Positions 10,801 to 38,149 of a DNA stretch of 64,000 bases are shown here, piece after piece. This stretch comes from a virus. The DNA lies in the IMG/VR virus record IMGVR_UViG_3300032805_000001, positions 32,001-96,000 of that record. One strand, written 5' to 3'. The notes under the pieces were generated by a model that was not told the DNA's origin, ran no database searches, and saw only the letters and a list, made by a program, of their open reading frames with translations. A program made the position numbers and the translations under genes. The first letter of the stretch is position 1, and the number at the start of each line of letters is the position of its first letter.

Positions 10801-11330
10801 CGACCCAGGCCGGCGGAAAGGCGAATGCGGCCGCAGGTGAGTTCAGCAACAGCGCCGCGCAGCTATGGCGTATGGTTGATGCGGCGAATGCCGCCGCCGG
10901 CGCGATCAACGCGATCCCCACGTCAAAGACAACCAACTACTACGTCAACACCGACTACGCGCATATTGGTGCGGCGGGTGGCTTTTCCTCGGGTGGCCGG
11001 ATTCCTGGCTATGGCGGGGGAGATGTGCATCCGGCTCTGCTGGAAGGCGGGGAGACGGTTGTCCCGAAGGAACTGACCCCGGCGGTGGCGCCACTGATGC
11101 GCGCTCATGGTATTCCTGGGTTTGCTGGCGGCGGGATCATGGGTTCCGATGGTGGTTACGTCAGCCATGCCGGGTTCGGCGGCGGCGGCGGTGCCCAGCC
11201 GTTGCACATTCACCTGGAATTGAACGGTAACGAGATCGCCAGCGCGCTCATACCGTCCCTGACCAGCGCGAGCGGCAAGTATTCGGTGCGTAATTCTGGG
11301 AAGGCCACGGGTATCTGGCGTCCCGTCTGA
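7875..11330 (+). CDS. Tape measure protein
   Basis: 1151 aa, Ala/Gly-rich and helical, hydrophobic central part, C-terminal GGRIPGYGGGD-PALLEGGE; AGGAGG RBS. Confidence 0.93.
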   Translation: MELPEVTQRFDADVSGYLAGIEEMIAATDQFRESVDAALVSVEALHAAIDDLPTEKTIHINLETSGVPAAAAAGAGAGAPDTAGMAAEAAATEAAGAAADDADAKFRGLSEAEDAAAAAAARDAAALSAEAAAAHEAGDAADGTAASLGRIGETVGEATIPLAMAGDAAREVGIGLEEAGGDAERTAAGFGLLGAAAAGIVNGFARVEETWKNTNVVWGLSLNALHWIVMGSMEVLAVAVPALVAFGAASLVAMQGVQETGNRLEASYTTTEALGDAFNTTGGEALGLKGNLQAAQDAADPQIWELLGAGLRIVGEQSQGFVTMGSQVIGVLDRFAAELTVELNPKLSSFAGQLDGIASKGVSDLTAFGQAFGNLGHFIVNLASEMPGLAEVLLGAVAGFTKLLAVLTNPAWYNFGGNLVSVAMGIEEAWRWGGLLSNVLGSMLGKFANLVMGIGGFVGKIGALGSAGTAAATAMETMGGGIATAAEALSGPWGWVIMGAVAGLALLTIKLATTRTAAQQFADGLQNAVNSSDMTDAFTKIGGDLTQLQGKMQQTGVAADHTATLVTASGSSFKGLGASVGTAIEAYNAYSGTSSTMIKQSVGLIDAGEKISSQFKISLPAAFEAADMAGVKVGTMFQKNGQISAVALQQIQNFIDGYRVMSGNATALGNNINAVNVQLGLQNTKVGQLNQAWDQFTANATGGTSAWAAFNNDLQQMGDTAGVVGNKITAFSGKTAIGVKEISQALTSFSGTSAQVWQSFDASITQANTNLDWWRTAAASGAASGKQLTEATATTAGAFLPYVKNSQSALAETMMLAQQQGGPAYNSSKSLAQNYQALSGWVQQNSVSQNQYNGMLAQATTALSNVNQQAQQFSQTLRGDVSQAIITGSGALATVTKDTQSFSTALKNNVPQSDAVSSAVKTLTGDLVRNGYDAQSAGSMIYQLGVQQGLTKGQAYTLEQQAIRTANALIQTGNAATQAGGKANAAAGEFSNSAAQLWRMVDAANAAAGAINAIPTSKTTNYYVNTDYAHIGAAGGFSSGGRIPGYGGGDVHPALLEGGETVVPKELTPAVAPLMRAHGIPGFAGGGIMGSDGGYVSHAGFGGGGGAQPLHIHLELNGNEIASALIPSLTSASGKYSVRNSGKATGIWRPV

Positions 11331-11406
11331 TCTGGGCCTGTCCGCGGGAATCTCCCGTCCTCCTCTTGTATGCGGGTTACCTGCCGCACTGTGACCTTCC
11401 CCGGGG

Positions 11407-13008
11407 GTGTGTGTGGCTGTTGAGGTTTTCGCTAACGACGGTGCCGCCACTGTCGCCAGCGGCGGCGCGACTACCCCGGTGGCAGGCACCGTCGAGTCGT
11501 GGACCCTGGGCAGTTCCACCTTGCCGGCGGTGTCCTCGTCGGCGACCCCGCCGACCTGGTGTTACATCACCGATCAGGCGAACGACGCGGAGAAGATGCT
11601 CGTCACGAACATCTCCGGGTCGACGGCGACTGTGACACGCGGCGCGGACGGCACCACGCCTATCGCGCATGCGAGCGGGTTCACGGTCAACCAGGTCGCT
11701 ACCCGCGCGTCGCTGACGGCGCTGCAAAGCCCCGCCTGGCTTAACGCGGCAACGTGGTTCGGTGCGGATCCGGCGGGGGCGGCGGACTCCACCACGGCGA
11801 TCCAGAATGCCCTGAATGCTGCCGGGACCGGCGGGGTCGTCTACCTGCCTGCCGGGACGTATAAGCTCACCGCCGCGCTGACCATGACTTCCGGTGTCAC
11901 CCTGCGCGGCGCCGGGCCGGCTGCGACGATCCTGTATCAGACGGGCACGGCGGCGAACGGCATCACGATCGCCGCGACGACGATCGCTAACGTCACGGTG
12001 CGTGATCTGCGGCTTAATGGCCCCAACACGGGCAGCGGTGTCGGTATCGCCGCGGCGGCGAACGGGGGCGCCAACCCGGTCGTGCAGTTGCTCCTGGACA
12101 ACCTGATCGTCTACCAGTTCGGCTCTCATGGCCTTTACCTGCAGAACACGATCGTCTCGATACTGAGCTGTATCGAGTCCGTCAATAATCTCGGCCGCGG
12201 ATTCTGGCTGAACGAGGGCACTTCCACGTCGCTGATTAGCTGCTACGCCAACACGAACCCGAATGAGCGCGGCTACTACCTGCAGAGCCTGCTTTATTCG
12301 CCGGTGATTGGCTGCGCGTCAGATGGTAACGCCATCGGGTATGAGCTGAACGGGTGCGACAGTGTTTCGGTTGCCGGCTGCGGCGCCGAGGACACCGCGG
12401 CGGGGTCTTCTGGCCTGGATGGTTCATCGTTCAAGCTGACCGGGTGCACGTCCACGTCGGTGCGGAACATCCGGGCGCTGAACAACGCCGCGGTTGGCTG
12501 CTATTTCACCAGCAACAGCACGCAATGTTCCCTGGATGGTTTCACCGAGACCGCGGCGGGCGGGGCGACCGCATCAATCACGGTTGACGCTGGATGCGAT
12601 GTCACGTTGCAGAACTACGTTACCGCCACCGCGCAGACTCTCGCGAGCGGCACCACAACCATCCTGAACAGCTATGGTTACACGTTTCTGCGGACGCTGG
12701 AGGCCGGTGATCCGCTGGTCCTGGACTCTGGCAGCGACACGAGCGGCGTCGCCGCCGCGACCTCGCCGTCTTTCAGCACTAACGTCGCGAAACAGCTTGA
12801 TACCACCCAGGACGTCATGCTTTACATCGCCGTTCAGACGTCCGTGAATCTCACGGTGGCGATCGGGCCGACCTCGACCCCGGCGACGACGGTCATGCCC
12901 ACCAAGTCGTACGCATTGGGTCTTATCTCGCTGCGGATTCCCAAGGCCTGGTGGGTGGTGATCACGGGCACGATCGCCGACCTGACTATCACCCAGATTC
13001 CCTGCTAG
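11407..13008 (+). CDS. Tail spike with pectate-lyase-3-like right-handed beta-helix
   Basis: FGADPAGAADSTTAIQNAL...VVYLPAGTY followed by beta-helix repeats. Confidence 0.8.
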   Translation: MCVAVEVFANDGAATVASGGATTPVAGTVESWTLGSSTLPAVSSSATPPTWCYITDQANDAEKMLVTNISGSTATVTRGADGTTPIAHASGFTVNQVATRASLTALQSPAWLNAATWFGADPAGAADSTTAIQNALNAAGTGGVVYLPAGTYKLTAALTMTSGVTLRGAGPAATILYQTGTAANGITIAATTIANVTVRDLRLNGPNTGSGVGIAAAANGGANPVVQLLLDNLIVYQFGSHGLYLQNTIVSILSCIESVNNLGRGFWLNEGTSTSLISCYANTNPNERGYYLQSLLYSPVIGCASDGNAIGYELNGCDSVSVAGCGAEDTAAGSSGLDGSSFKLTGCTSTSVRNIRALNNAAVGCYFTSNSTQCSLDGFTETAAGGATASITVDAGCDVTLQNYVTATAQTLASGTTTILNSYGYTFLRTLEAGDPLVLDSGSDTSGVAAATSPSFSTNVAKQLDTTQDVMLYIAVQTSVNLTVAIGPTSTPATTVMPTKSYALGLISLRIPKAWWVVITGTIADLTITQIPC

Positions 13009-30613: not shown

Positions 30614-30727
30614 GTAGCACATGGTGGATATGGGGTTCCTTGCATGCTTCTGGGCTACTCCCCCGCTCTGAAATTTTAGAGCGCGAGAAGACGGCTTCTC
30701 ACGAATTGATCATGTATCATGGGGGAC

Positions 30728-31783
30728 ATGACCATAACCCCGATCGAGCGGATCATCCTCCCGCCCGGCGACGGCCGGCCCGACTGGCTCCCCGTCGCCG
30801 TCAGCGGCACACCCGCCCCGCCACCCGGCATCGACCCGCACGCCGCCTACATCGCCCGGCTCAAGAGCCCGCAATCCAAGCGCGTCATGAACGGCTGCCT
30901 GAACAACCTCGCCCGCATGATCGCCAGCGACGCCCTCGGCGCCGAACCCGAACTTGACGACAACCCCGGCAAGGCCTTCCCGTGGTGGCTGCTCCGCTAC
31001 CAGCACACCTCCCGCCTCACAGCCCTCCTCGACAGCCACCAGCCGCCCTACGCAGCGTCCTACATCAACAAGCACCTCGCGGCGCTGCGCGGCATCCTTG
31101 AGGAATGCTGGAAACTTGAGCTGATGAGCGGCGACGACTACACCCGCGCCAGGCGCATCGAGGACGTCAAGTTTCACCGCGAGCCCGCCGGCCGGCTCAT
31201 CCACGACGACGACATGGCCAGGCTGCTCGCCGTCTGCTCGGACGGCATCATCGGAATCCGGGACACCGCGCTGCTCGCCACGCTGTACTGCACCGGTATC
31301 CGCTGCGAAGAAGCCGCCACCGCGCTCATCGAGCACTACGACGGCCGCGAGCGGACCCTGCGTGTCCTCGGCAAGGGAAACAAGGAACGCACTGTCCCCA
31401 TCCACCCGGCCGGGATCCCCCACCTTGAAACGTGGCTCGCCCTGCTCGGCGACCAGCGCGGGCCGCTGTTCCGCACCGTCGACAAGCACAACCGGATCGG
31501 CGGCGCGGTCAGCCCTGGTGCCATCCAGCGGCGGATCAGCCAGCGTTACCAGCAGGCCGGCATACGCAGGCTCACGGCACACGACTTCCGCCGGACGTTC
31601 CTCAGCGAGTTCCTCGATTCTGGTGCCGACGCGATGCAGGCACGAAAGGTCGCCGGGCACGCGAGCGTCGCCACGACCCAGCTTTACGACCTTCGCGAGG
31701 ACCGCGGCATCCGCGAAGCCGTGAGCCGGATGAAGATCGCCCTCCCTGCCCCGCCGTCAGTGGATGCCGTCTCTCCTTCCTGA
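30728..31783 (+). CDS. Tyrosine recombinase
   Basis: RD...GIR, GKGNKER, HDFRR, GH, catalytic Y; TATCAT 7 nt upstream of ATG 30728. Confidence 0.92.
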   Translation: MTITPIERIILPPGDGRPDWLPVAVSGTPAPPPGIDPHAAYIARLKSPQSKRVMNGCLNNLARMIASDALGAEPELDDNPGKAFPWWLLRYQHTSRLTALLDSHQPPYAASYINKHLAALRGILEECWKLELMSGDDYTRARRIEDVKFHREPAGRLIHDDDMARLLAVCSDGIIGIRDTALLATLYCTGIRCEEAATALIEHYDGRERTLRVLGKGNKERTVPIHPAGIPHLETWLALLGDQRGPLFRTVDKHNRIGGAVSPGAIQRRISQRYQQAGIRRLTAHDFRRTFLSEFLDSGADAMQARKVAGHASVATTQLYDLREDRGIREAVSRMKIALPAPPSVDAVSPS

Positions 31784-31794
31784 CCTCTCCCCCC

Positions 31795-31829
31795 GAAAGC
31801 CCCCCGGCCTCCTCCGGGGGGCTTTCCTT
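31795..31829 (+). terminator. Terminator hairpin
   Basis: GAAAGCCCCCCGG-cctcct-CCGGGGGGCTTTC. Confidence 0.75.
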
Positions 31830-31844
31830 ATACCTGGAGGCAGC

Positions 31845-32810
31845 GTGACCGTTCCCGCCCGTGTCCCCGGTTTGCGTGGCCGTCTCCCGGTCAAGCCGCC
31901 GGGTGAAAGGTTTGCTCTCCGGTTTGTCCACGAGTACGTCGTCGAGCCGCTTCCGGCACCGTCGTACCCGGTCGACGTGACCGGCGGGATCGGCGACCAG
32001 GACTGGTTCATGCTAGGCAATGGCCCTGACCCAACCTGTACTACTCATCCCAACGGGGTGGGTGACTGCGGGTTCGCCGGCCGGCAGCACCTTCGCATGG
32101 CGAAGGCCGCGAACTACGGGCAGATGGAAACGTGGGAGACCAGCGACGAACTCGTCGCTGAGTACCTTGCGTACGACGGCGGCCAGGATGCCGGCGTGAA
32201 CCTCGCTGACGTGCTTCTGGCGTGGTACAAGGCGGGGAGGATTTTCGGGTTCGCCCCGGTCGATCACACTGATCCGGCTGCGGTCGATTCGGCTATGGAG
32301 GCGTTCAATGGTGCCTACGCCGGTGTGAATCTGACCGATGATGCCAATGACTTGTTCAGCCAGGGTCAGCCGTGGACTGTCGCTGATGGTGAGCAGCCCG
32401 ATCCTGACCAGGGTCATTGCATTGTGAAGGTGAAGGCGGACGGGCGGAGTGTCGACGGGTATGTGACGTGGGGGGCGCTGCAGCCGGCGATGGTGGATTG
32501 GAGTGCGGCTTGCCTGGAGGAAGTGTGGGCGGTGATTACTACTGAGGATGAGGCGGCGAAGGTTGACATGGCTGCGCTGGTGGCTGATATCGAGGCCTTG
32601 GGCGGTACGGTTCCCACGCCTGCGCCGGTTCCTCCCGCCCCATCTCCTCCAGCGCCGCCCGCCCCGCCGGTGCCGCCCGCACCGGTGCCACCCGCACCGC
32701 AGCCCGCGAACCTGCTCGAGGAACTCGCCGCCCGGATCCGCATGGTGGCCGCCTCCGCGCAGCAGGACATCACCGAACTGCTCGCGTTCCTCGCCTCACA
32801 TGGCTTGTAA
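31845..32810 (+). CDS. Papain-like cysteine peptidase with Pro-rich linker (possible second lysin)
   Basis: MLGN...GDC, GHC, VTWG; GGAGG RBS. Confidence 0.6.
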   Translation: MTVPARVPGLRGRLPVKPPGERFALRFVHEYVVEPLPAPSYPVDVTGGIGDQDWFMLGNGPDPTCTTHPNGVGDCGFAGRQHLRMAKAANYGQMETWETSDELVAEYLAYDGGQDAGVNLADVLLAWYKAGRIFGFAPVDHTDPAAVDSAMEAFNGAYAGVNLTDDANDLFSQGQPWTVADGEQPDPDQGHCIVKVKADGRSVDGYVTWGALQPAMVDWSAACLEEVWAVITTEDEAAKVDMAALVADIEALGGTVPTPAPVPPAPSPPAPPAPPVPPAPVPPAPQPANLLEELAARIRMVAASAQQDITELLAFLASHGL

Positions 32811-33097
32811 CCGCCTGCTTTTCGTGTAGCCTTTTCGCTGGGTTCTGATTCTGGCACCTCCAGCCGGCCCCGGCTGAGCAACGTGATCCGGCCCCACTGA
32901 GGCGATCACGGACCCGTCCTGGCAAGTCGTTCTGGCCCCGCCTGAGCGCCCCGATCGCAGCAACTTCTCCTGGCTCCACCGGGGCGAAACATAACGGGTA
33001 GTACGCAAAACATACCAGTGGTTATCACGGGCAGTAGTGGACACGGAAGGGGCTGTAGTGAGACGCTTCATCGGTCGGTCGTGTCAGGAGGCCGCTG

Positions 33098-33625
33098 ATG
33101 TTGACGCGCATACAGCTGTTCGAGAAGATCCGCAGGGACCGGCGCCTGGAGCCGGACGTGTCGCAGCGAGAGCTGTCGCGGCGGTATAACGTGCACCGCA
33201 GGACGGTGCGGGCGGCGCTGGAGTCAGCGATCCCGCCTCCTCGCAAGAAACCCGCCCGAGGCCGGCTCTCCGTCATAGGCCCCGCCGCGGTGTGGATCGA
33301 CGCGATGCTGCGGGAAGACCTCACGGCCCCGCGCAAGCAGCGTCACACGATCCAGCGCATCCACGACCGGCTGCGGATCGAGCGGAGCCTTGACAGCGGC
33401 GACCACTCGGCGCCGTTCCCCGTCGAACTGCCCATGCGCTGCATCGGGGCCGGGTGCAAGCCGGCCGGCGTCGTGCTGGATATGTTCGCGGGGACCGGGA
33501 CGACGTGCGAGGCGGCACGCAAGCTCGGACGGAAGGCCATCGGCATCGACCTGAATCCGGCCTCGCTGGACTTGGCCATACGACACCGGCTGAGCCAAGG
33601 GGACTTGTTCGGTGATGCGGCGTGA
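33098..33625 (+). pseudogene. istA: Chimera: IstA N-terminal HTH region fused to the C-terminal half of an N4/N6 DNA methyltransferase
   Basis: SQRELSRRYNVHRRTVRAAL...PRKQRHTIQRIHDRL, then HSAPFPVEL...VLDMFAGTGTT...GIDLN. Confidence 0.8.
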
Positions 33626-34044
33626 CCTGCGTAGAGATAGCGGCGTTCCTGGCCGCCCGGCTGGGCGAGGACGAGGCGACGGCGAAGGCGGCCACGGCCG
33701 GCCCGTGGGAATTCGAGGGCGACGATCCGACCGATGACGAGCTCTACTCCATCCATGACGGCATCGTTGACCTCACGGGCGTGACCGTGGCGTTCACCAG
33801 GGACCGGCAGGTGGCCAACGGTCGCCACATGGCCCGCCACGACCCCACCCGGACGATCCGCGAGGTCGAGGCCAGCCGGGCGCTCATCGAGCGATATAAG
33901 CGCGCCTGCGCCGTGCGAGAGTCGGTCGTGAGCTTCACCGCCGGCCAGGACGACGGTTACCGGCAGGCATGCCTTGATGCGATCCGCGACCTCGCCGCCA
34001 TTCATAGCGACCATCCCGACTACCAGCAGGAATGGAAGCCGTGA
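33622..34044 (+). CDS. DUF6221-like phage protein
   Basis: FLAARLGEDE...HMARHDPTRTIREVEA...HPDYQQEW. Confidence 0.75.
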   Translation: MTCVEIAAFLAARLGEDEATAKAATAGPWEFEGDDPTDDELYSIHDGIVDLTGVTVAFTRDRQVANGRHMARHDPTRTIREVEASRALIERYKRACAVRESVVSFTAGQDDGYRQACLDAIRDLAAIHSDHPDYQQEWKP

Positions 34045-34409
34045 ACGACCTGCTTGCGTTCGTGAGCGCCCGCCTCGACGAGGACGAGCAGGAGGCGAAG
34101 TACGCCCTGGAGCGCCTGTCCGAGTGCGCGGGAATCCAGGTCTCCGACCCTGAAGACGGCGGCAACATCGGGCACATGGTCGCCTACTCGTTCCACGCCC
34201 GCCGCCACGACCCCGCCCGCGCACTCCGCGAGGTCGAAGCTAAGCGCGGCATCATCCGCGAGCATGAGAGCAGGGACGGTCGCTGCCGCGTCTGCACGGC
34301 TATCCACGACGGGCGCGCTACCCGGTTCCGCGCGCCGTGCCCGACTCTGCTCTCCCTCGCTGCCGTCTTTAGCAGCCACCCCGCCTACCAGCAGGAATGG
34401 GAGCTATGA
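34041..34409 (+). CDS. DUF6221-like phage protein (paralog)
   Basis: FVSARLDEDE...RHDPARALREVEAKR...PCPTL...HPAYQQEW. Confidence 0.75.
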   Translation: MNDLLAFVSARLDEDEQEAKYALERLSECAGIQVSDPEDGGNIGHMVAYSFHARRHDPARALREVEAKRGIIREHESRDGRCRVCTAIHDGRATRFRAPCPTLLSLAAVFSSHPAYQQEWEL

Positions 34410-34552
34410 ACACGCAATCAGGATCGGTGAGCGAAGCCGAGGCCATGGACGAAGCGCTCGCCACCGCGGCCGTGCTCGGTGCAGCCCTCGCACGCTTCGA
34501 GAATGCGGTCGACCGCCTGAAAGAGGCGCAAGCCGGGAAGATAAGCGTATGA
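34406..34552 (+). CDS. Small hypothetical protein (48 aa)
   Basis: ATGA coupling at both ends. Confidence 0.5.
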   Translation: MNTQSGSVSEAEAMDEALATAAVLGAALARFENAVDRLKEAQAGKISV

Positions 34553-34800
34553 CGGAAAGCACCGATAACCGCATAGCCAAGGCCCTCAGCATCGCTCCGG
34601 ACGGCATGCATGACGGCGCGCACCACAAGGACTGGGTGATCGACCAGATCGTCCGCGCCCTCACCGGCTGCCCCGTGGTCACCAAAACCGCGACGGACTA
34701 CCGGGGCCAGGAATACGACTACGAAGCACAGGGAGAGTCGACGCAGTACAAGGCTTTCGTCGCAGCGAACGACGGCTGGAGTGAAGGGGTGGCGCCATGA
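34549..34800 (+). CDS. Hypothetical phage protein
   Basis: DGAHHKDWVIDQIVRALTG...WSEGVAP. Confidence 0.7.
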   Translation: MTESTDNRIAKALSIAPDGMHDGAHHKDWVIDQIVRALTGCPVVTKTATDYRGQEYDYEAQGESTQYKAFVAANDGWSEGVAP

Positions 34801-34828
34801 CCGAAGAGGAAAAAGGCCGGGAAACCCG

Positions 34829-34996
34829 CTATCCCCCCGTGATCTCCAGGTCAGCCACCAGCTTGGCGAACTCGGCGTCAGAGGTCTCGTATTCGCTCTT
34901 GCTGGCCAGGAACTCGCCGTCACACATCAGCCGTACCTCGTTGGCGTACTGGATGAAGGCGTCCAGCGCCTCTTTGCTGACAACGACACGGGACAT
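34829..34996 (-). CDS. Small hypothetical protein (55 aa)
   Basis: Natural helical composition, GC3-rich codons. Confidence 0.45.
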   Translation of the reverse strand: MSRVVVSKEALDAFIQYANEVRLMCDGEFLASKSEYETSDAEFAKLVADLEITGG

Positions 34997-35212
34997 GTCC
35001 GTAATTCTTCGCCCTGTCTTCACCCGCTGGCCGGGAGTACGTCTCACGCTAGCAACGTGCTCCGTCGCGCCGCAGAGGCTTAACGCCGCAACCAGGCGGC
35101 CTGACTTCACCTCTGCGGCGCGACGATCAGGGGCGCATCCCGTGAGGGTTCCCGCAGTTCGCGCGGGGTGGTGCGCCCCAGCCACCGCAAGCCACCCTAG
35201 CAGCAGGACGCG

Positions 35213-35494
35213 ATGATCGACATCAGAAGCACAGGCCTCCAGTTCCGCGGCGTCCCGGTCACTCTTATGAGCGAGGGCGTGGAGGCGCTGTTCCGCCGTT
35301 GCGGCGAGAATGTGGGAACCGGCGTTGGCATGATCCTGCAGACCGCCACGGATCTCGTTGAGCCGCTTGGCTGCATACTCCAATCCGATGCTGTCGGCGG
35401 CGTGACGGTCCTGGTCGAGCGGTTCGATTGCACATACGACTTCGGCCGTCACGAGGGCGGACGCTGGTCCGTCTTCCTGCCGAGCGAACGATAG
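35213..35494 (+). CDS. Hypothetical protein
   Basis: AGGA RBS, 93 aa. Confidence 0.45.
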   Translation: MIDIRSTGLQFRGVPVTLMSEGVEALFRRCGENVGTGVGMILQTATDLVEPLGCILQSDAVGGVTVLVERFDCTYDFGRHEGGRWSVFLPSER

Positions 35495-35685
35495 TGGGGA
35501 ACCGGAGTGCGGAGATTACACTCGCTGAGCGGCTGCGCCTGTTCTGGTGGAACTGGGTGCGCCGGCCGCTCATCAATGCCCTGTGGCGGCTGCGGAGACG
35601 GCGGTGATCCCGCAGGAGGCATTTGGGGAGGGCCGCACTGACCCGCCCTGTCAGGGGGCAGGCCGGTCGCACTCATCCACCAAGC

Positions 35686-36012
35686 TTAACGGCGATTTTC
35701 CTCGCTGCGCGTTTCAAGTTCACCAGCGAGGAGCGCTGCCGCCTCGGCTTTCGTCGGGGCAGCCACTTTGATGCCTGTCGGCTGGTGGAGGAGACGCACG
35801 GTCGCACCAGGACCACGGAAGACCTCAATGCGGCAGTCCTGCAGGAAGGCGGGTTCGAGGTTGAGGTGGAGCAGGATGCGCTTCACGTCAGCTTCCAATC
35901 CGGTAAGGCGCTGTTCTAGCCGTTCGCCGCGTGACTTGTCCTGCGCGTCGGCCATCGCGGCGTAGCTTCCCTTGCCGTGAACGCGGTCCCAGTCATCGAT
36001 GTCAGCACCCAT
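35686..36012 (-). CDS. Hypothetical protein with release-factor-like segment lacking GGQ
   Basis: CRIEVFRGPG-ATVRLLHQPTGIKV; TAAGGT 7 nt upstream of ATG. Confidence 0.55.
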   Translation of the reverse strand: MGADIDDWDRVHGKGSYAAMADAQDKSRGERLEQRLTGLEADVKRILLHLNLEPAFLQDCRIEVFRGPGATVRLLHQPTGIKVAAPTKAEAAALLAGELETRSEENRR

Positions 36013-36327
36013 GCAGCGGACCTTACCCTGCCGACGGCGCGAGCGGTGATGGGGAACCGGGCCGGGCTGACCCAGCTCTGTCAGGGAGAGGATCGACCGG
36101 CCCGATTCCTGAAACCCATGCTAGGGCCTAGTCAGGTGACCGCAGCAGGGCCGGAGTGGAGCCAAAACTCCTTGCGATCCGGCTCGTGATCCGGGGCGGC
36201 CGGGTGGGGCCAGATCTAGCTGCTACGACAGCACCCGTGGAGACAAGTGGAGCCAGATGAAGTTGCTCTCCTGGAGCCAGAACACGTTGCCCTACTCACT
36301 GGGTTCGTTAGTTTCGTTAGTTTCGGG

Positions 36328-36371
36328 ACGCCGGCCAGCCGCCCTGCGGGGGTGGCTGGCCGGCGTTTTTT
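36328..36371 (+). terminator. Intrinsic terminator
   Basis: ACGCCGGCCAGCC...GGCTGGCCGGCGT followed by T run. Confidence 0.85.
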
Positions 36372-36560
36372 GCGTGCCCGGGTAACCGCCGCGGGAACGG
36401 GTTCACGGGGAACAGGGCCGGGGATACGGTCCCGGTCGCCGGCTTGTCCAGTGAGCCGAGAGCGTTGCCGAGGCTTTCACCGAACATGGGTGTCTCCTTA
36501 CACATGGTTCCGGCCCAGCCGCCTGAACGGGCAGCCGGGCCGGAGACTTTGGTGCCCCGA

Positions 36561-37382
36561 TCAGGGGCAGTTGTAGAAGCCGGGTGTCAGGCTGGTGACC
36601 GGGTTGGTGCAGCCGACGACCTTCCAGATCGAGTTGGCGGTGTCGCTTTCCGGGTAGAGCATCTGCCACGTGCCAGGGCCGCCCCAGCCGGTGTCGTTGA
36701 GGGTCTCCAGGGTGTTGTGGGAGTGGAAACCGTTCGACACGGTGTCCTCGGCGAGGACGTAACCGCCGGTCACCGGGACCGGGGAGAAAACCTGCCACTG
36801 GTTTGCGCTGGTGACGATCCCCGGGTTGCCGGCGCCGCCGTTAGGTGTGCCGGGAGTGAAGGCGGCCCCGGCCGAACTGCATGTACGGAGCACGGTCCAC
36901 CAGTGCTTCCAGCCGGCCGGCTTCTCAACCGACAGGCACAGGTTCGCTGAGCTGTTCCAGTCGGCCGTTGTCACGGGGCCGCTGCCGGTGTGGCCGAGCG
37001 GCACGCCGTCCGGCGTGTACATGGCGACGTATTCGCCCTGCCCGTCGAGCGGGTCCTTCACCTGAACGCCGCCCAGGTTGTACTGGAAGACCGTCCAGTC
37101 TTCGCTGCTGTCACTGGCGCTGTACGGCTCGATGACGACCTTGGAGTTCCAGACCGAACCGGTCGCCGACAGCGTGAGGCTGGAGGCGTTGGGCTGCGTG
37201 CCGTTGCCGAGGCCCGGAAGGTAGATGCCGCCGCACCCGATGGGCGGCGACGTCGGGTGGGCGATATTGGTGCACGTTGAGGTGGTGGCGCTGGCCGGGC
37301 CTGCGAGCGCGGCGGCTCCCATCCCCCCGGCCAGAGCAAGCACGCCGGCACTGGCTGCAAGCTTTCCCTTGAAACGGTTCAA
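36561..37382 (-). CDS. Secreted protein, possibly ricin-type lectin fold
   Basis: Sec signal ending PASA, paired Cys, spaced W motifs; AGGAG RBS, TTG start. Confidence 0.7.
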   Translation of the reverse strand: MNRFKGKLAASAGVLALAGGMGAAALAGPASATTSTCTNIAHPTSPPIGCGGIYLPGLGNGTQPNASSLTLSATGSVWNSKVVIEPYSASDSSEDWTVFQYNLGGVQVKDPLDGQGEYVAMYTPDGVPLGHTGSGPVTTADWNSSANLCLSVEKPAGWKHWWTVLRTCSSAGAAFTPGTPNGGAGNPGIVTSANQWQVFSPVPVTGGYVLAEDTVSNGFHSHNTLETLNDTGWGGPGTWQMLYPESDTANSIWKVVGCTNPVTSLTPGFYNCP

Positions 37383-37530
37383 CGTTTCTCCTGTTGTATT
37401 TGTATTTGGCGTGACTGAAATTTCCCAGCCCTAATCCGATGGCTGGCTGGACGGGGACATGTTCCCCCGGCACCTGGCAGCGGCTCCACGGGACGCTGGC
37501 ACATGCCCGGGGACTGTCCCCGGCCGGGGG

Positions 37531-37953
37531 TTACGCCACCTGCTCCCCCGGTTTCTCCTTCTTCGGCGGCTTCTTCTTCCCGCGCCTCAGCGTCTGTTCC
37601 CAGTGCTTTACCACCGCCGCGATCTCGTCGTCGTCCGCGAGACGTTCCTGGGCTTCCCGCAGGATCCGGTCACATTCCCCGAGAGAAACCGGGCGCGGGC
37701 GGCGCCGGCGCGGGAGAGGCTGTTCCCGGTACCCCGGGTCGTCCATCTCGGATGTCATGAACGTCATCGCGCCCACGACCATCGAGAGGATCGACAACGC
37801 GAACGCGAGAGGCTGGCCGAGCAGCAGCCACCATGCGGGGCCCAGCACGCCTGCCAGGATGACCCAGACGACGGAGAAGGGGAGGCGGGCACGGAGAATC
37901 CACGCCGCGGCGGGCGGGAAGAAAAACGCCCCGAGGGCGATGGCGGTGCTCAC
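37531..37953 (-). CDS. Membrane protein
   Basis: Hydrophobic N-terminal half, basic tail. Confidence 0.65.
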   Translation of the reverse strand: MSTAIALGAFFFPPAAAWILRARLPFSVVWVILAGVLGPAWWLLLGQPLAFALSILSMVVGAMTFMTSEMDDPGYREQPLPRRRRPRPVSLGECDRILREAQERLADDDEIAAVVKHWEQTLRRGKKKPPKKEKPGEQVA

Positions 37954-38149
37954 GTTAAGACACTCCGGATCACACGTAGTTGACGCGTCGGTTCGCTGCC
38001 GGGTTTACGTCCCGGGGTTTCGCTTCCCCGCTGCCGCGGGTATTCCTCTGGCGGGGACTACCGGATCCCCGCCCTCCGTTCCGGATGGTCACCCCCGGGG
38101 CATCCCGCACGCTGGCAGGCGTGCCCGGGGGTGACTGGACGGGCTGACG

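Follow-up and report, generated by a model that had tools for sequence, protein, structure and literature searches.

Insertion sequences of the IS21 family, such as IS21 and IS5376, encode IstA and the AAA+ helper IstB, end in TG...CA tips with several direct repeats per end, and leave a short target site duplication (TSD), which in the family spans 4 to 8 bp. The mobile insertion cassettes (MICs) of Bacillus cereus are IS231-ended. As defined in PMC3129680 and PMC3281130, MICs, which were first described in that species, carry passenger genes between IS-type ends without a transposase, and a transporter IS (tIS) is an IS with both transposase and passenger genes (PMC3129680 and PMC9330008). 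For IS5376, PMC10122671 places the end repeats L1/L2 and R1/R2 23 bp apart, gives a TSD of 5 bp, and describes the role of the 3′ CA. The locus considered here is a 3.45-kb insert with IS21-type ends, inside the genome of a wetland actinomycete phage. It occupies positions 32846 to 36298 (3,453 bp, bounded by its TG...CA tips) of the window, the whole 64,000-nt stretch of a 120-kb record that was analysed.

The left end (32846-32979, + strand) opens with the tip TGATTCTG (32846-32853), followed by four putative IstA-site-like repeats of about 20 bp that start at 32854, 32878, 32922 and 32960 on the + strand. The right end (36049-36298, - strand) is a conserved block of 250 b. It has a GC hairpin, four repeats that start at 36156, 36204, 36247 and 36271 on the - strand, and the tip ...CCTACTCA (36291-36298). 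The repeats run in mirror order, with the same 8+20+4+20 layout at both ends, and the outer two of each end are 24 bp apart, start to start, compared with the 23 bp given for IS5376 in PMC10122671; L1, the terminal repeat on the left, is the least like the repeat consensus. Tips, repeats and spacing all lie where an earlier note on this DNA had put them, and its reading of them as IS21-type ends with a target duplication holds. The end layout is identical in the plain IS21 relatives L011 and L044, and the TGATT + 20 + 4 + 20 arrangement of the left end is also found in L011 and in L012, an element from a cultured actinomycete. A degenerate pattern, GCANNNNNNNYYGGCYCC, matches the 8 end-repeat sites and has no further match in the 64-kb window, against a mean of 1.14 matches in shuffled sequence, where 0 of 100 shuffles reached 8; since the pattern was built from those same 8 sites, the test shows specificity, not discovery.

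The outer boundaries can be set by comparison with related copies, for which we call the window element copy A, a second copy in the same record copy B, the locus L053 copy C, and a fourth copy D. On the left, contigs of runs X6 and X7, with related copies in different flanks, diverge outward at 32845/32846; on the right, copies B, C and D diverge immediately after ...CCCTACTCA. Both flanks carry an exact 8-bp duplication, CTGGGTTC, at 32838-32845 and 36299-36306, as had been claimed, and 8 bp is favored over 7 bp (with the C assigned to the right end) because copy D has a T after the tip. The TSD of 8 bp compares with 6 bp in L012 and with the 5 bp of IS5376 (PMC10122671). Gene 31764-32810 ends 35 b upstream of the insert, and a predicted intrinsic terminator (~36325-36372, + strand; -43.8 kcal/mol, z -5.7, then a U-run) follows it, so that removal of the element rejoins gene and terminator, in agreement with the earlier note. 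A simple terminator scan missed the hairpin at 36325-36372. An empty insertion site, which the note suggested looking for in related phages, was not found.

Like IS21-family members, the element has the IstA N-terminus with both HTH domains; unlike them, it contains about 2.7 kb of unrelated genes and lacks istB as well as the parts of IstA that form the DDE, beta-barrel and C-terminal regions. No DDE domain and no istB are found anywhere inside it, as first proposed, and only a 5′ stub of istA is left (33098-33385, + strand, codons 1-96), encoding HTH-1 and most of HTH-2, with domain limits taken from PMC10122671. ORF 33098-33625, to which the stub belongs, matches NF033546 at positions 7-80 with 41.5 bits against a cut-off of 160. 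Over all 96 residues the stub is 99% identical to an intact 540-aa IstA, P0112 (which has PF00665 on record), and it is 66% identical to the IstA of L012 by tblastn. The remainder of the ORF (33386-33625, + strand) is the final 79 codons of a gene for an N4/N6 DNA methylase, in frame with the stub (PF01555, positions 138-219 of 221; phrog_67). Of its residues, 74/81 are identical to aa 200-280 of a full-length 280-aa methylase, P0003, whose N-terminal 200 residues have no counterpart in the element, and the stretch 33398-33563 is matched by methylase genes of actinophages. Across the junction the sequence is RLRIER|SLDSGDHS, where the intact IstA has RLRIERNFTD and the methylase EPDRSLDSG; the ORF is an IstA N-terminus plus a methylase C-terminus and nothing more. 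When the 120-kb record was searched by tblastn, IstA residues 97-330 (P0112 numbering, DDE domain included) had no counterpart, the only matches being the stub and the part of IstA from residue 331 on. The record encodes no DDE-bearing IstA.

Such a chimera invites the suspicion that an assembler joined the ends of a repeat family to an unrelated interior. The right 250 b are a near-exact repeat of copy B, which makes de Bruijn contigs end at 36049-36078 and at 36271, and the contigs of run X1 also break at 33342/33355. However, in the independent run X5, which carries no flag as a possible source, a single 5,510-b contig covers 31000-35129 with 0 differences, bridging the left tip and the 33385 junction; interior depth is even in X1 and X5 and doubled only over the common right end, where a depth of about 2x that of the flanks fits two copies per genome; the two flanks are linked by the 8-bp duplication; and the identical chimeric protein is recorded from 5 contigs. 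An artefact is thus very improbable. Of the junctions for which the earlier note proposed read mapping, the one near 33385 is bridged by the X5 contig. At the right-hand junction, near 36049, coverage reaches only to 36078 (30 b), since the second copy repeats 36049-36151 exactly. Correct pairing of the right flank is supported by the duplication that both flanks have in common.

The earlier note held that the element had swapped its transposase for cargo. The relatives speak against a swap, since in copy B and in L012 the cargo stands next to the transposase genes, in the interval from istB to the right end. L012 encodes a full IstA (NF033546, 226 bits against a cut-off of 160) and IstB (246 against 200), has TG...CA tips and a 6-bp duplication, and carries about 0.9 kb with two ORFs in the slot that separates istB from its right end. 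In L011, a plain relative, the same slot measures only some 330 b, and the window right end is homologous to this istB-to-tip stretch. Copy B retains IstA aa 331-540 (194/211 residues identical to P0112) and an intact IstB (NF038214, 253 bits, cut-off 200). From there to the right end lie some 2.27 kb, in which an HTH gene is followed by small ORFs, a broken DUF6221 gene and ORF95. The lineage fits the tIS definition of PMC3129680 and PMC9330008, with L012 holding istA, istB and two passenger ORFs in one pair of ends, and copy B fitting in part, having cargo after istB, though its istA is truncated and its left end absent. Our literature search found no paper describing an IS21-family tIS. Unlike a tIS, the copy in the window no longer has transposase genes. 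It resembles instead a MIC in the sense of PMC3129680 and PMC3281130, with IS-type inverted-repeat ends around passengers (two intact DUF6221 genes and further ORFs), no transposase, and a flanking duplication from the transposition of the cassette or its parent as a unit. Unlike the MICs of B. cereus, it has IS21-type ends, and unlike a MIC it keeps a transposase stub fused to its cargo and sits in a phage genome; mobilisation in trans, as MICs have it, is for this copy a possibility. Among hitch-hiking elements the window element is a neat instance of an established type rather than a novel one.

How the transposase genes were lost is suggested by three sister elements. In L053, IstA(1-36) is in frame with the last 17 residues of IstB, and the fusion is followed by about 2.3 kb of other cargo, a structured element, ORF92 and the right end, in a different flank. 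Two further istA::istB fusions, P0002 and P0106, join IstA to IstB inside a tripeptide, FTD, common to both proteins, and after IstA(1-40), respectively. In-frame fusions among protein matches are to be expected from the way in which these were found. All three have lost istA-istB sequence internally and kept the downstream part. We consider it probable that the window element is a defective, non-autonomous IS21-family derivative, from a lineage whose passengers sit between istB and the right inverted repeat, and that it lost its transposase genes by a microhomology deletion. Transposition of the IstA/IstB type, an assignment that follows from family membership, would have put a two-ended unit 35 b downstream of the phage gene, parting that gene from its terminator and duplicating 8 bp. 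One internal deletion at 3-5 nt of microhomology would have joined istA codon 96 to methylase codon ~201, with the loss of all of istA beyond that codon (DDE domain included), of istB, and of the front part of the methylase gene. By analogy with the three sister deletions, we infer that the methylase gene formerly lay downstream of istB in the cargo slot; no relative was found with a methylase gene in that position. The deletion would have left behind an in-frame ORF with the two end-binding HTH domains of IstA on a methylase fragment missing the first 200 residues, a tightly packed stretch of a phage early operon (two DUF6221 genes and two small ORFs), a 125-nt structured element, ORF93, and a segment specific to this copy. 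Whether the deletion came before or after the insertion here is roughly an even matter.

The operon piece itself bears on a second explanation. The first DUF6221 gene (33622-34044, + strand; PF19730, 5.9e-28; phrog_6326; GC3 0.86) has a start that overlaps the methylase stop (GTGA), the second (34032-34409, + strand; PF19730, 1.3e-22) is 35% identical to the first, and two small + strand ORFs, of 51 aa (34397-34552) and 83 aa (34549-34800), complete the piece; the 83-aa ORF matches phrog_23179 (8.3e-8), and the 51-aa ORF is without any match. Starts and stops overlap all along the row of genes that runs from the methylase to the 83-aa ORF, which shows this to be a single contiguous operon piece, cut in mid-gene. 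Such a left 1.4 kb of cargo could also have come from another phage genome, recombination having exchanged the middle of a normal or cargo-bearing IS21 copy after it had inserted, by an illegitimate crossover between istA codon 96 and the methylase gene and a homologous crossover to the right, for example in the structured element or ORF93. A full-length methylase (P0003) 91% identical to the fragment does exist in the protein collection, a contig of run X6 fits the methylase part from ~33365 on, unlike the window before that point, and the G+C of the element equals that of the host phage, 0.66 throughout. On the other hand, replacement needs two crossovers where a single deletion suffices, and the three sister elements show single internal deletions of this very kind; no donor phage with a methylase-DUF6221-DUF6221 order was found in IMG/VR or INPHARED, and the record has no other methylase piece.

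Further to the right, a small convergent ORF of about 55 aa (34829-34996, - strand, GC3 0.84) has zero matches in Pfam, PHROGs and PADLOC; there is a terminator-like site on the - strand at 34839-34818. It is followed by the structured non-coding element (35063-35186, + strand), 125 nt with a 16-bp perfect stem (35063-35125) and a second stem-loop domain, which folds at -76.8 kcal/mol (z -4.4) and has no Rfam match. Next comes ORF93 (35213-35494, + strand), again with zero matches in Pfam, PHROGs and PADLOC, the passenger that adjoins the right end in all four copies seen (identity 71% to copy B, 60% to C and ~57% to D). Between ORF93 and the right end, 11-bp direct repeats of TGGGGAACCGG (35495-35505 and 36050-36060) bound a segment, 35495-36060, that is absent from L053, whose ORF92 abuts the right end; a contig of run X6 joins 35493 to 36050, a weak join at depth 3.7 and with 24 b on one side. 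The segment holds an ORF of 108 aa (35686-36012, - strand) whose coding is uncertain because its GC3 is 0.69. In all, 4 of the 8 ORFs of the element match phage families, and the earlier note's reading of the cargo as phage-type holds.

The right end is 95.6% identical to that of copy B, ~92-94% to C and 90% to D. The cargo differs in every copy, and only ORF93 (A, B, C and D) and DUF6221 (A and B) are common; some exchange of cargo must therefore take place, and it could also account for a replaced interior in the window copy. Moreover, identity between A and C is a mosaic, with 203/205 in the left part, 97.6% over the 125 nt of the structured element, 71.7% in the adjoining ORF93 and ~94% in the right end, which shows recombination between copies. 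Replacement after insertion may have affected the left 1.4 kb of the cargo, but we hold it to be unlikely. The presence of ORF93 in the relatives, and in L053 of the structured element as well, means that the right part of the cargo is older than this insertion. Copies B and D have no left end in their records, so ORF93 also stands beside a right end outside complete elements. It could be an ordinary phage gene, given that its family has 72 clusters in the metagenome protein collection and that all four copies were found via IS sequence. The 125-nt structured element and ORF93 make small, well-defined targets for follow-up.

The window copy is incapable of moving by itself. With P0112, however, the protein collection contains an intact IstA that is 99% identical to the stub, which makes mobilisation in trans conceivable. 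A stricter MIC reading would have the transposase genes lost earlier and the element inserted as it is now by IstA/IstB acting in trans, as part of a family that moves early genes between phages. Both ends do keep two terminal repeats at 24-bp spacing and a CA tip, which matches what IstA needs for integration in vitro according to PMC10122671; the target duplication is perfect, related left ends lie in other flanks in two other runs, and several different deletion derivatives of one lineage persist. Yet the junction was seen at no second site: the same istA-methylase join was found nowhere else in a search of IMG/VR, of 401 genomes and of the 10 metagenome loci retrieved, and the record has one left end. 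Related ends, which the earlier note suggested looking for at other loci, do occur in other flanks. The 5 contigs with the identical chimera equal in number the runs holding at least half of the stretch's words, the deletion is different in each derivative, as decay in place would give, no intact IstA was found in the record or in IMG/VR, and L1 is the repeat furthest from consensus. We regard active shuttling of such a cassette as rather unlikely. Distinctly less probable is a broader notion, that of a phage-borne family of IS21 derivatives with fixed ends, a constant ORF93, in two copies also a near-invariant 125-nt structured element, and a free cargo slot after istB, which would shuttle early-gene modules among large actinomycete phages by means of IstA/IstB from intact copies in the host. 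The in-frame HTH stubs of IstA, retained in all the deletion derivatives, would then act at the ends by binding them, and so control this mobilisation or compete for it.

Insertion sequences are regarded as uncommon in phage genomes. This 120-kb record has two copies of one IS21 lineage, each of which lacks a functional transposase and carries a load of phage early genes. For annotation, the lesson is that the IstA-methylase chimera should be named neither methylase nor transposase. Together with its relatives, the window element offers a worked example of an IS21-type element gaining a cargo slot and then decaying into transposase-less cassettes. Should such cassettes be mobilised in trans, transposition would be a further route by which actinomycete phages exchange early genes in mosaic fashion.

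The ends of the insert at 32846-36298 are those of an IS21-type element. In the record, an IMG/VR virus of 120,103 b rated 97% complete, assembled from a wetland metagenome and represented in the window by bases 32001-96000, an exact duplication of CTGGGTTC (32838-32845 and 36299-36306) encloses 3,453 bp that begin TGATTCTG and finish CCTACTCA. Four repeats of about 20 bp, matching GCAA-N6-YYGGCYCCAS, stand on the + strand in the left end and four more on the - strand in the right end; the outer two of each set follow an 8+20+4+20 layout common to both ends. A degenerate version of this pattern has eight matches in the 64 kb, the eight end sites only, against a shuffle mean of 1.14 and with none of 100 shuffles reaching eight; since the pattern was built from these same sites, the test speaks to specificity only. 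The right ends of four copies of the lineage (copy A, the window element, and copies B-D) diverge directly after ...CCCTACTCA, next to the flanks CTGGGTTC, CTTAAAAC, CGCAAGAT and TGCTGGGC, and the tip is thus CA. The IS21-type ends, tips and exact duplication described in the earlier note are therefore all where it placed them.

The gene at 31764-32810 has its stop 35 b upstream of the insert, and a strong hairpin with a U-run lies downstream, at about 36325-36372 (-43.8 kcal/mol, z -5.7). With a tyrosine integrase gene (PF00589) at 30719-31783, two genes upstream, and a convergent gene for a 273-aa secreted-looking protein just downstream, at 36561-37382, the element sits in an integrase-proximal accessory region of the phage. 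The empty site proposed as a check was not found: the join of 32845 to 36299 is absent from the contigs of four metagenome runs over 31000-38000, and the three IMG/VR relatives of the 31764-32810 gene (L084-L086) are only about 71% identical to it in DNA and are not syntenic downstream.

Inward of the left end, an ORF on the + strand at 33098-33625 is a chimera. Its residues 1-96 are an IstA N-terminus (NF033546 positions 7-80; 66% identical to the IstA of L012, a relative in a cultured actinomycete), and residues 97-175 correspond to the last quarter of an N4/N6 DNA methylase (PF01555 positions 138-219 of 221; phrog_67), which also matches actinophage methylase genes by blastn and is the sole cargo protein matched by PADLOC. 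PMC10122671 assigns IstA residues 1-39 and 55-104 to a pair of HTH domains through which the protein binds its end repeats, and by those limits the stub retains the DNA-binding part and no catalytic part; the absence of a DDE domain and of istB, with an istA 5' stub as the only remnant, was thus rightly called. Two proteins from the collection searched fix the junction. Across all 96 residues the stub is 99% identical to P0112, an intact IstA of 540 aa, and the methylase fragment matches P0003, a full-length methylase of 280 aa, at 74 of 81 residues. Where P0112 reads RLRIERNFTDASYS and P0003 reads ...EPDR|SLDSGDHS, the window reads RLRIER|SLDSGDHS, which places the junction after IstA codon 96, with a microhomology of one codon or slightly more.

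Whether such a junction could be an assembly artifact was addressed by aligning the contigs of the four runs (X1, X5, X6 and X7) to 31000-38000. In X5, a run not flagged as a possible source, a single 5,510-b contig covers 31000-35129 with 0 differences, so that it bridges the internal junction near 33385 as well as the left tip. The right end, the other place where the earlier note had wanted junction-spanning sequence, gave no such continuity: contigs end at 36078 and resume at 36271, because the record holds a second copy to which 36049-36151 and 36204-36298 are identical. Depth over this shared right end is about double (66-70 versus about 37 in X1; 18-19 versus about 9 in X5), and the pairing of flanks across the repeat has as its basis the original assembly and the matching 8-bp duplication. 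X6 and X7, from which the host phage is nearly absent, hold short contigs with other flanks that are 93-97% identical to the left end and depart from the window at 32845/32846 outward, marking the left tip there. A proline/alanine-rich repeat at 32640-32700, in the C-terminal end of the 31764-32810 gene, draws contigs of other organisms and produces spurious joints when run contigs are aligned there.

Beyond the junction, the start of the DUF6221 gene a overlaps the methylase stop; after it come gene b and two further ORFs, of 51 aa and 83 aa, each overlapping or abutting its predecessor. From the methylase to the 83-aa ORF, this is one continuous stretch of a phage operon that has been cut in mid-gene. 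It is followed in turn by a small convergent ORF, a 125-nt structured element, ORF93 (35213-35494), a 556-b segment and the 250-b right end. The cargo is phage-type as claimed, 4 of its 8 ORFs matching phage families, and G+C is 0.66 both inside and outside the element. Searches for a cargo donor yielded nothing useful. In INPHARED, blastn matched the methylase piece alone (13 records), and tblastn with ORF95, the copy B counterpart of ORF93, found no match. In IMG/VR, scans returned 30 loci for DUF6221a (best 63-64%), 15 loci for the methylase piece (at most 54%, except for the best segment, 70% over just 30 residues) and 0 loci for the ORF93 alignment. Protein atlas neighbours of ORF93 were sub-threshold only, and the two Rfam matches were at chance level only. 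The 556-b segment (35495-36060) is peculiar to copy A and is bracketed by an 11-bp direct repeat, TGGGGAACCGG. Neither the metagenome contig L053 nor one low-depth X6 contig has this segment, which may be a small insertion of a distinct type. It holds a 108-aa ORF on the - strand whose coding is doubtful (GC3 0.69, weak statistics, no family match).

The structured element, at 35063-35186 in the window and 2174-2298 in L053, has two domains and folds at -76.8 kcal/mol (z -4.4). Between copy A and L053 its identity is 97.6%, against only 71.7% for the neighbouring ORF; one of the differences in the element replaces an A-U pair by G-U on the + strand. Neither Rfam nor INPHARED gave a match for the element. 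Two short contigs of X6, a run without the host phage, overlap it, one at depth 15.

The earlier note took the transposase to have been swapped for phage cargo, but the relatives change that reading. L011, a plain relative of 3,076 b, has about 330 b from the istB stop to the tip, including a GC hairpin homologous to the start of the copy A right-end block. L012 (7984-11966 of a Winogradskya humida genome contig) is a full-length IS21-family element of about 3.98 kb, with tips TGATTTG...CAAACA, a flanking 6-bp duplication (GCCGCC), and full IstA and IstB, each of which exceeds its NCBIfam cut-off. Here about 0.9 kb separates the istB stop from the GC hairpin, and it holds two ORFs of unknown function (10829-11110, +; 11202-11657, -), so that transposase genes stand beside cargo; L012 is a cultured-strain example of an IS21-type transporter IS. 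Such a cargo slot between istB and the right end exists but is uncommon. Among 40 loci with IstB or IstA relatives, 18 were left out for a missing gene part or a flank too short, 3 had no inverted repeat, and in 17 of the 19 with one, the outermost repeat lies 84-713 b after istB; it lies beyond 1 kb only in L012 and in L030 (1.6 kb), whose istA looks short.

The same slot is occupied in copy B, on the - strand of the same record outside the window (G000:C1 113166 to about 116862; L009 8167-11862). In element order this 5'-truncated copy opens with IstA residues 331-540 (194/211 identical to P0112), followed by an intact IstB (NF038214, 253 bits versus 200) and about 2.27 kb of cargo: an XRE-type HTH gene, small ORFs, a broken DUF6221, ORF95 (71% identical to ORF93) and a further small ORF. 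Its right end is 95.6% identical to that of copy A, all 11 differences falling within one 52-nt patch. Copy B lacks a left end. Its istA is cut against unrelated sequence, and a short ORF upstream of the cut (L009 about 11990-11860, - strand) has a start that resembles a signal peptide. Copies A and B were also considered as products of one reciprocal rearrangement, an idea rejected because the IstA residues between 96, the last of the stub, and 331, the first in B, are nowhere in the record.

Three sister elements (L053, P0002 and P0106) carry a single internal deletion of most of istA-istB. Copy C, on the 2,923-b L053, starts inside the left part (203/205 identical to 33002-33206) and joins IstA codons 1-36 in frame to the last 17 codons of istB; then come about 2.3 kb of other cargo, the structured element, ORF92, the right end directly and a different flank, so cargo retention after deletion is demonstrable here. 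In P0002 the IstA-IstB joint lies inside a shared tripeptide, FTD, and in P0106 IstA(1-40) is joined to the middle of IstB. The fusions were retrieved as ORFs of 96-307 aa, and their in-frame state is thus partly an effect of the search. A hot-spot breakpoint common to copy A and P0002 was discarded, as the intact P0112 (RLRIERNFTD) puts the P0002 junction five codons further, inside FTD. Copy D (G402; L119 2940-3981, - strand), on a 25-kb IMG/VR phage contig, has an ORF93 homologue of 107 aa, two small ORFs and a right end 90% identical to that of copy A; no istA, istB or left end occurs anywhere in that record. Other actinobacterial IS21 lineages have IstA N-terminal stubs too, in proteins with other families on record (P0054, P0011, P0035 and P0067; a protein named DUF6228 family, PF13561, PF04993 and PF00392), though P0067 itself reads as a truncated IstA, so its record may be no true fusion. 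Fusion of a truncated istA to a neighbouring gene appears to be common, and the breakpoints fall at many positions. Further family members were scarce: an IMG/VR scan with IstB gave one weak match, and of 401 genomes of L012's family, 25 had matches, all of 26-58 nt at E 1e-4 or weaker, which are taken as chance.

The simplest account is that copy A is a cargo-carrying IS21 reduced by one microhomology deletion. The parent would have been a transporter IS with the methylase operon, we infer, downstream of istB, and the deletion would have joined istA codon 96 to the methylase gene; no parent so arranged was seen among the relatives found. The evidence is direct for the ends, the duplication, the junction and the missing DDE domain and istB, as well as for the sister deletions and the cargo slot that relatives have. 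In the main rival account, which is less probable, recombination with another phage exchanged the middle of copy A; it draws some support from cargo that differs in each copy and from an identity between copies A and C that is uneven along the element. Copy A may also have moved in trans after its transposase genes were gone. By the criteria of PMC10122671, two repeats and a CA tip, its ends look competent, and P0112 is an intact cognate IstA; however, every derivative seen has a different lesion, a second site for the istA-methylase junction was not found, and an intact IstA of the lineage is absent from the 120,103-b record and from IMG/VR, where neither P0112 nor a left-end 27-mer found a match. 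Overall, then, what the earlier note observed is confirmed, and its interpretation holds in part only.

As for classification, copy A lacks two defining features of an IS21-family insertion sequence, the transposase and the helper, and is thus a derivative of the family and not a member. By the definitions in PMC3129680, PMC3281130 and PMC9330008, it qualifies as a mobile insertion cassette whose ends are IS21-type, and the lineage behind it as a transporter IS. Among the titles and abstracts that a literature search listed, none concerns an IS21-family element that carries passenger genes. The interest of copy A is moderate, and it comes mainly from the family picture, namely a cargo slot, repeated deletions and residence in phages, together with the conserved 125-nt element.
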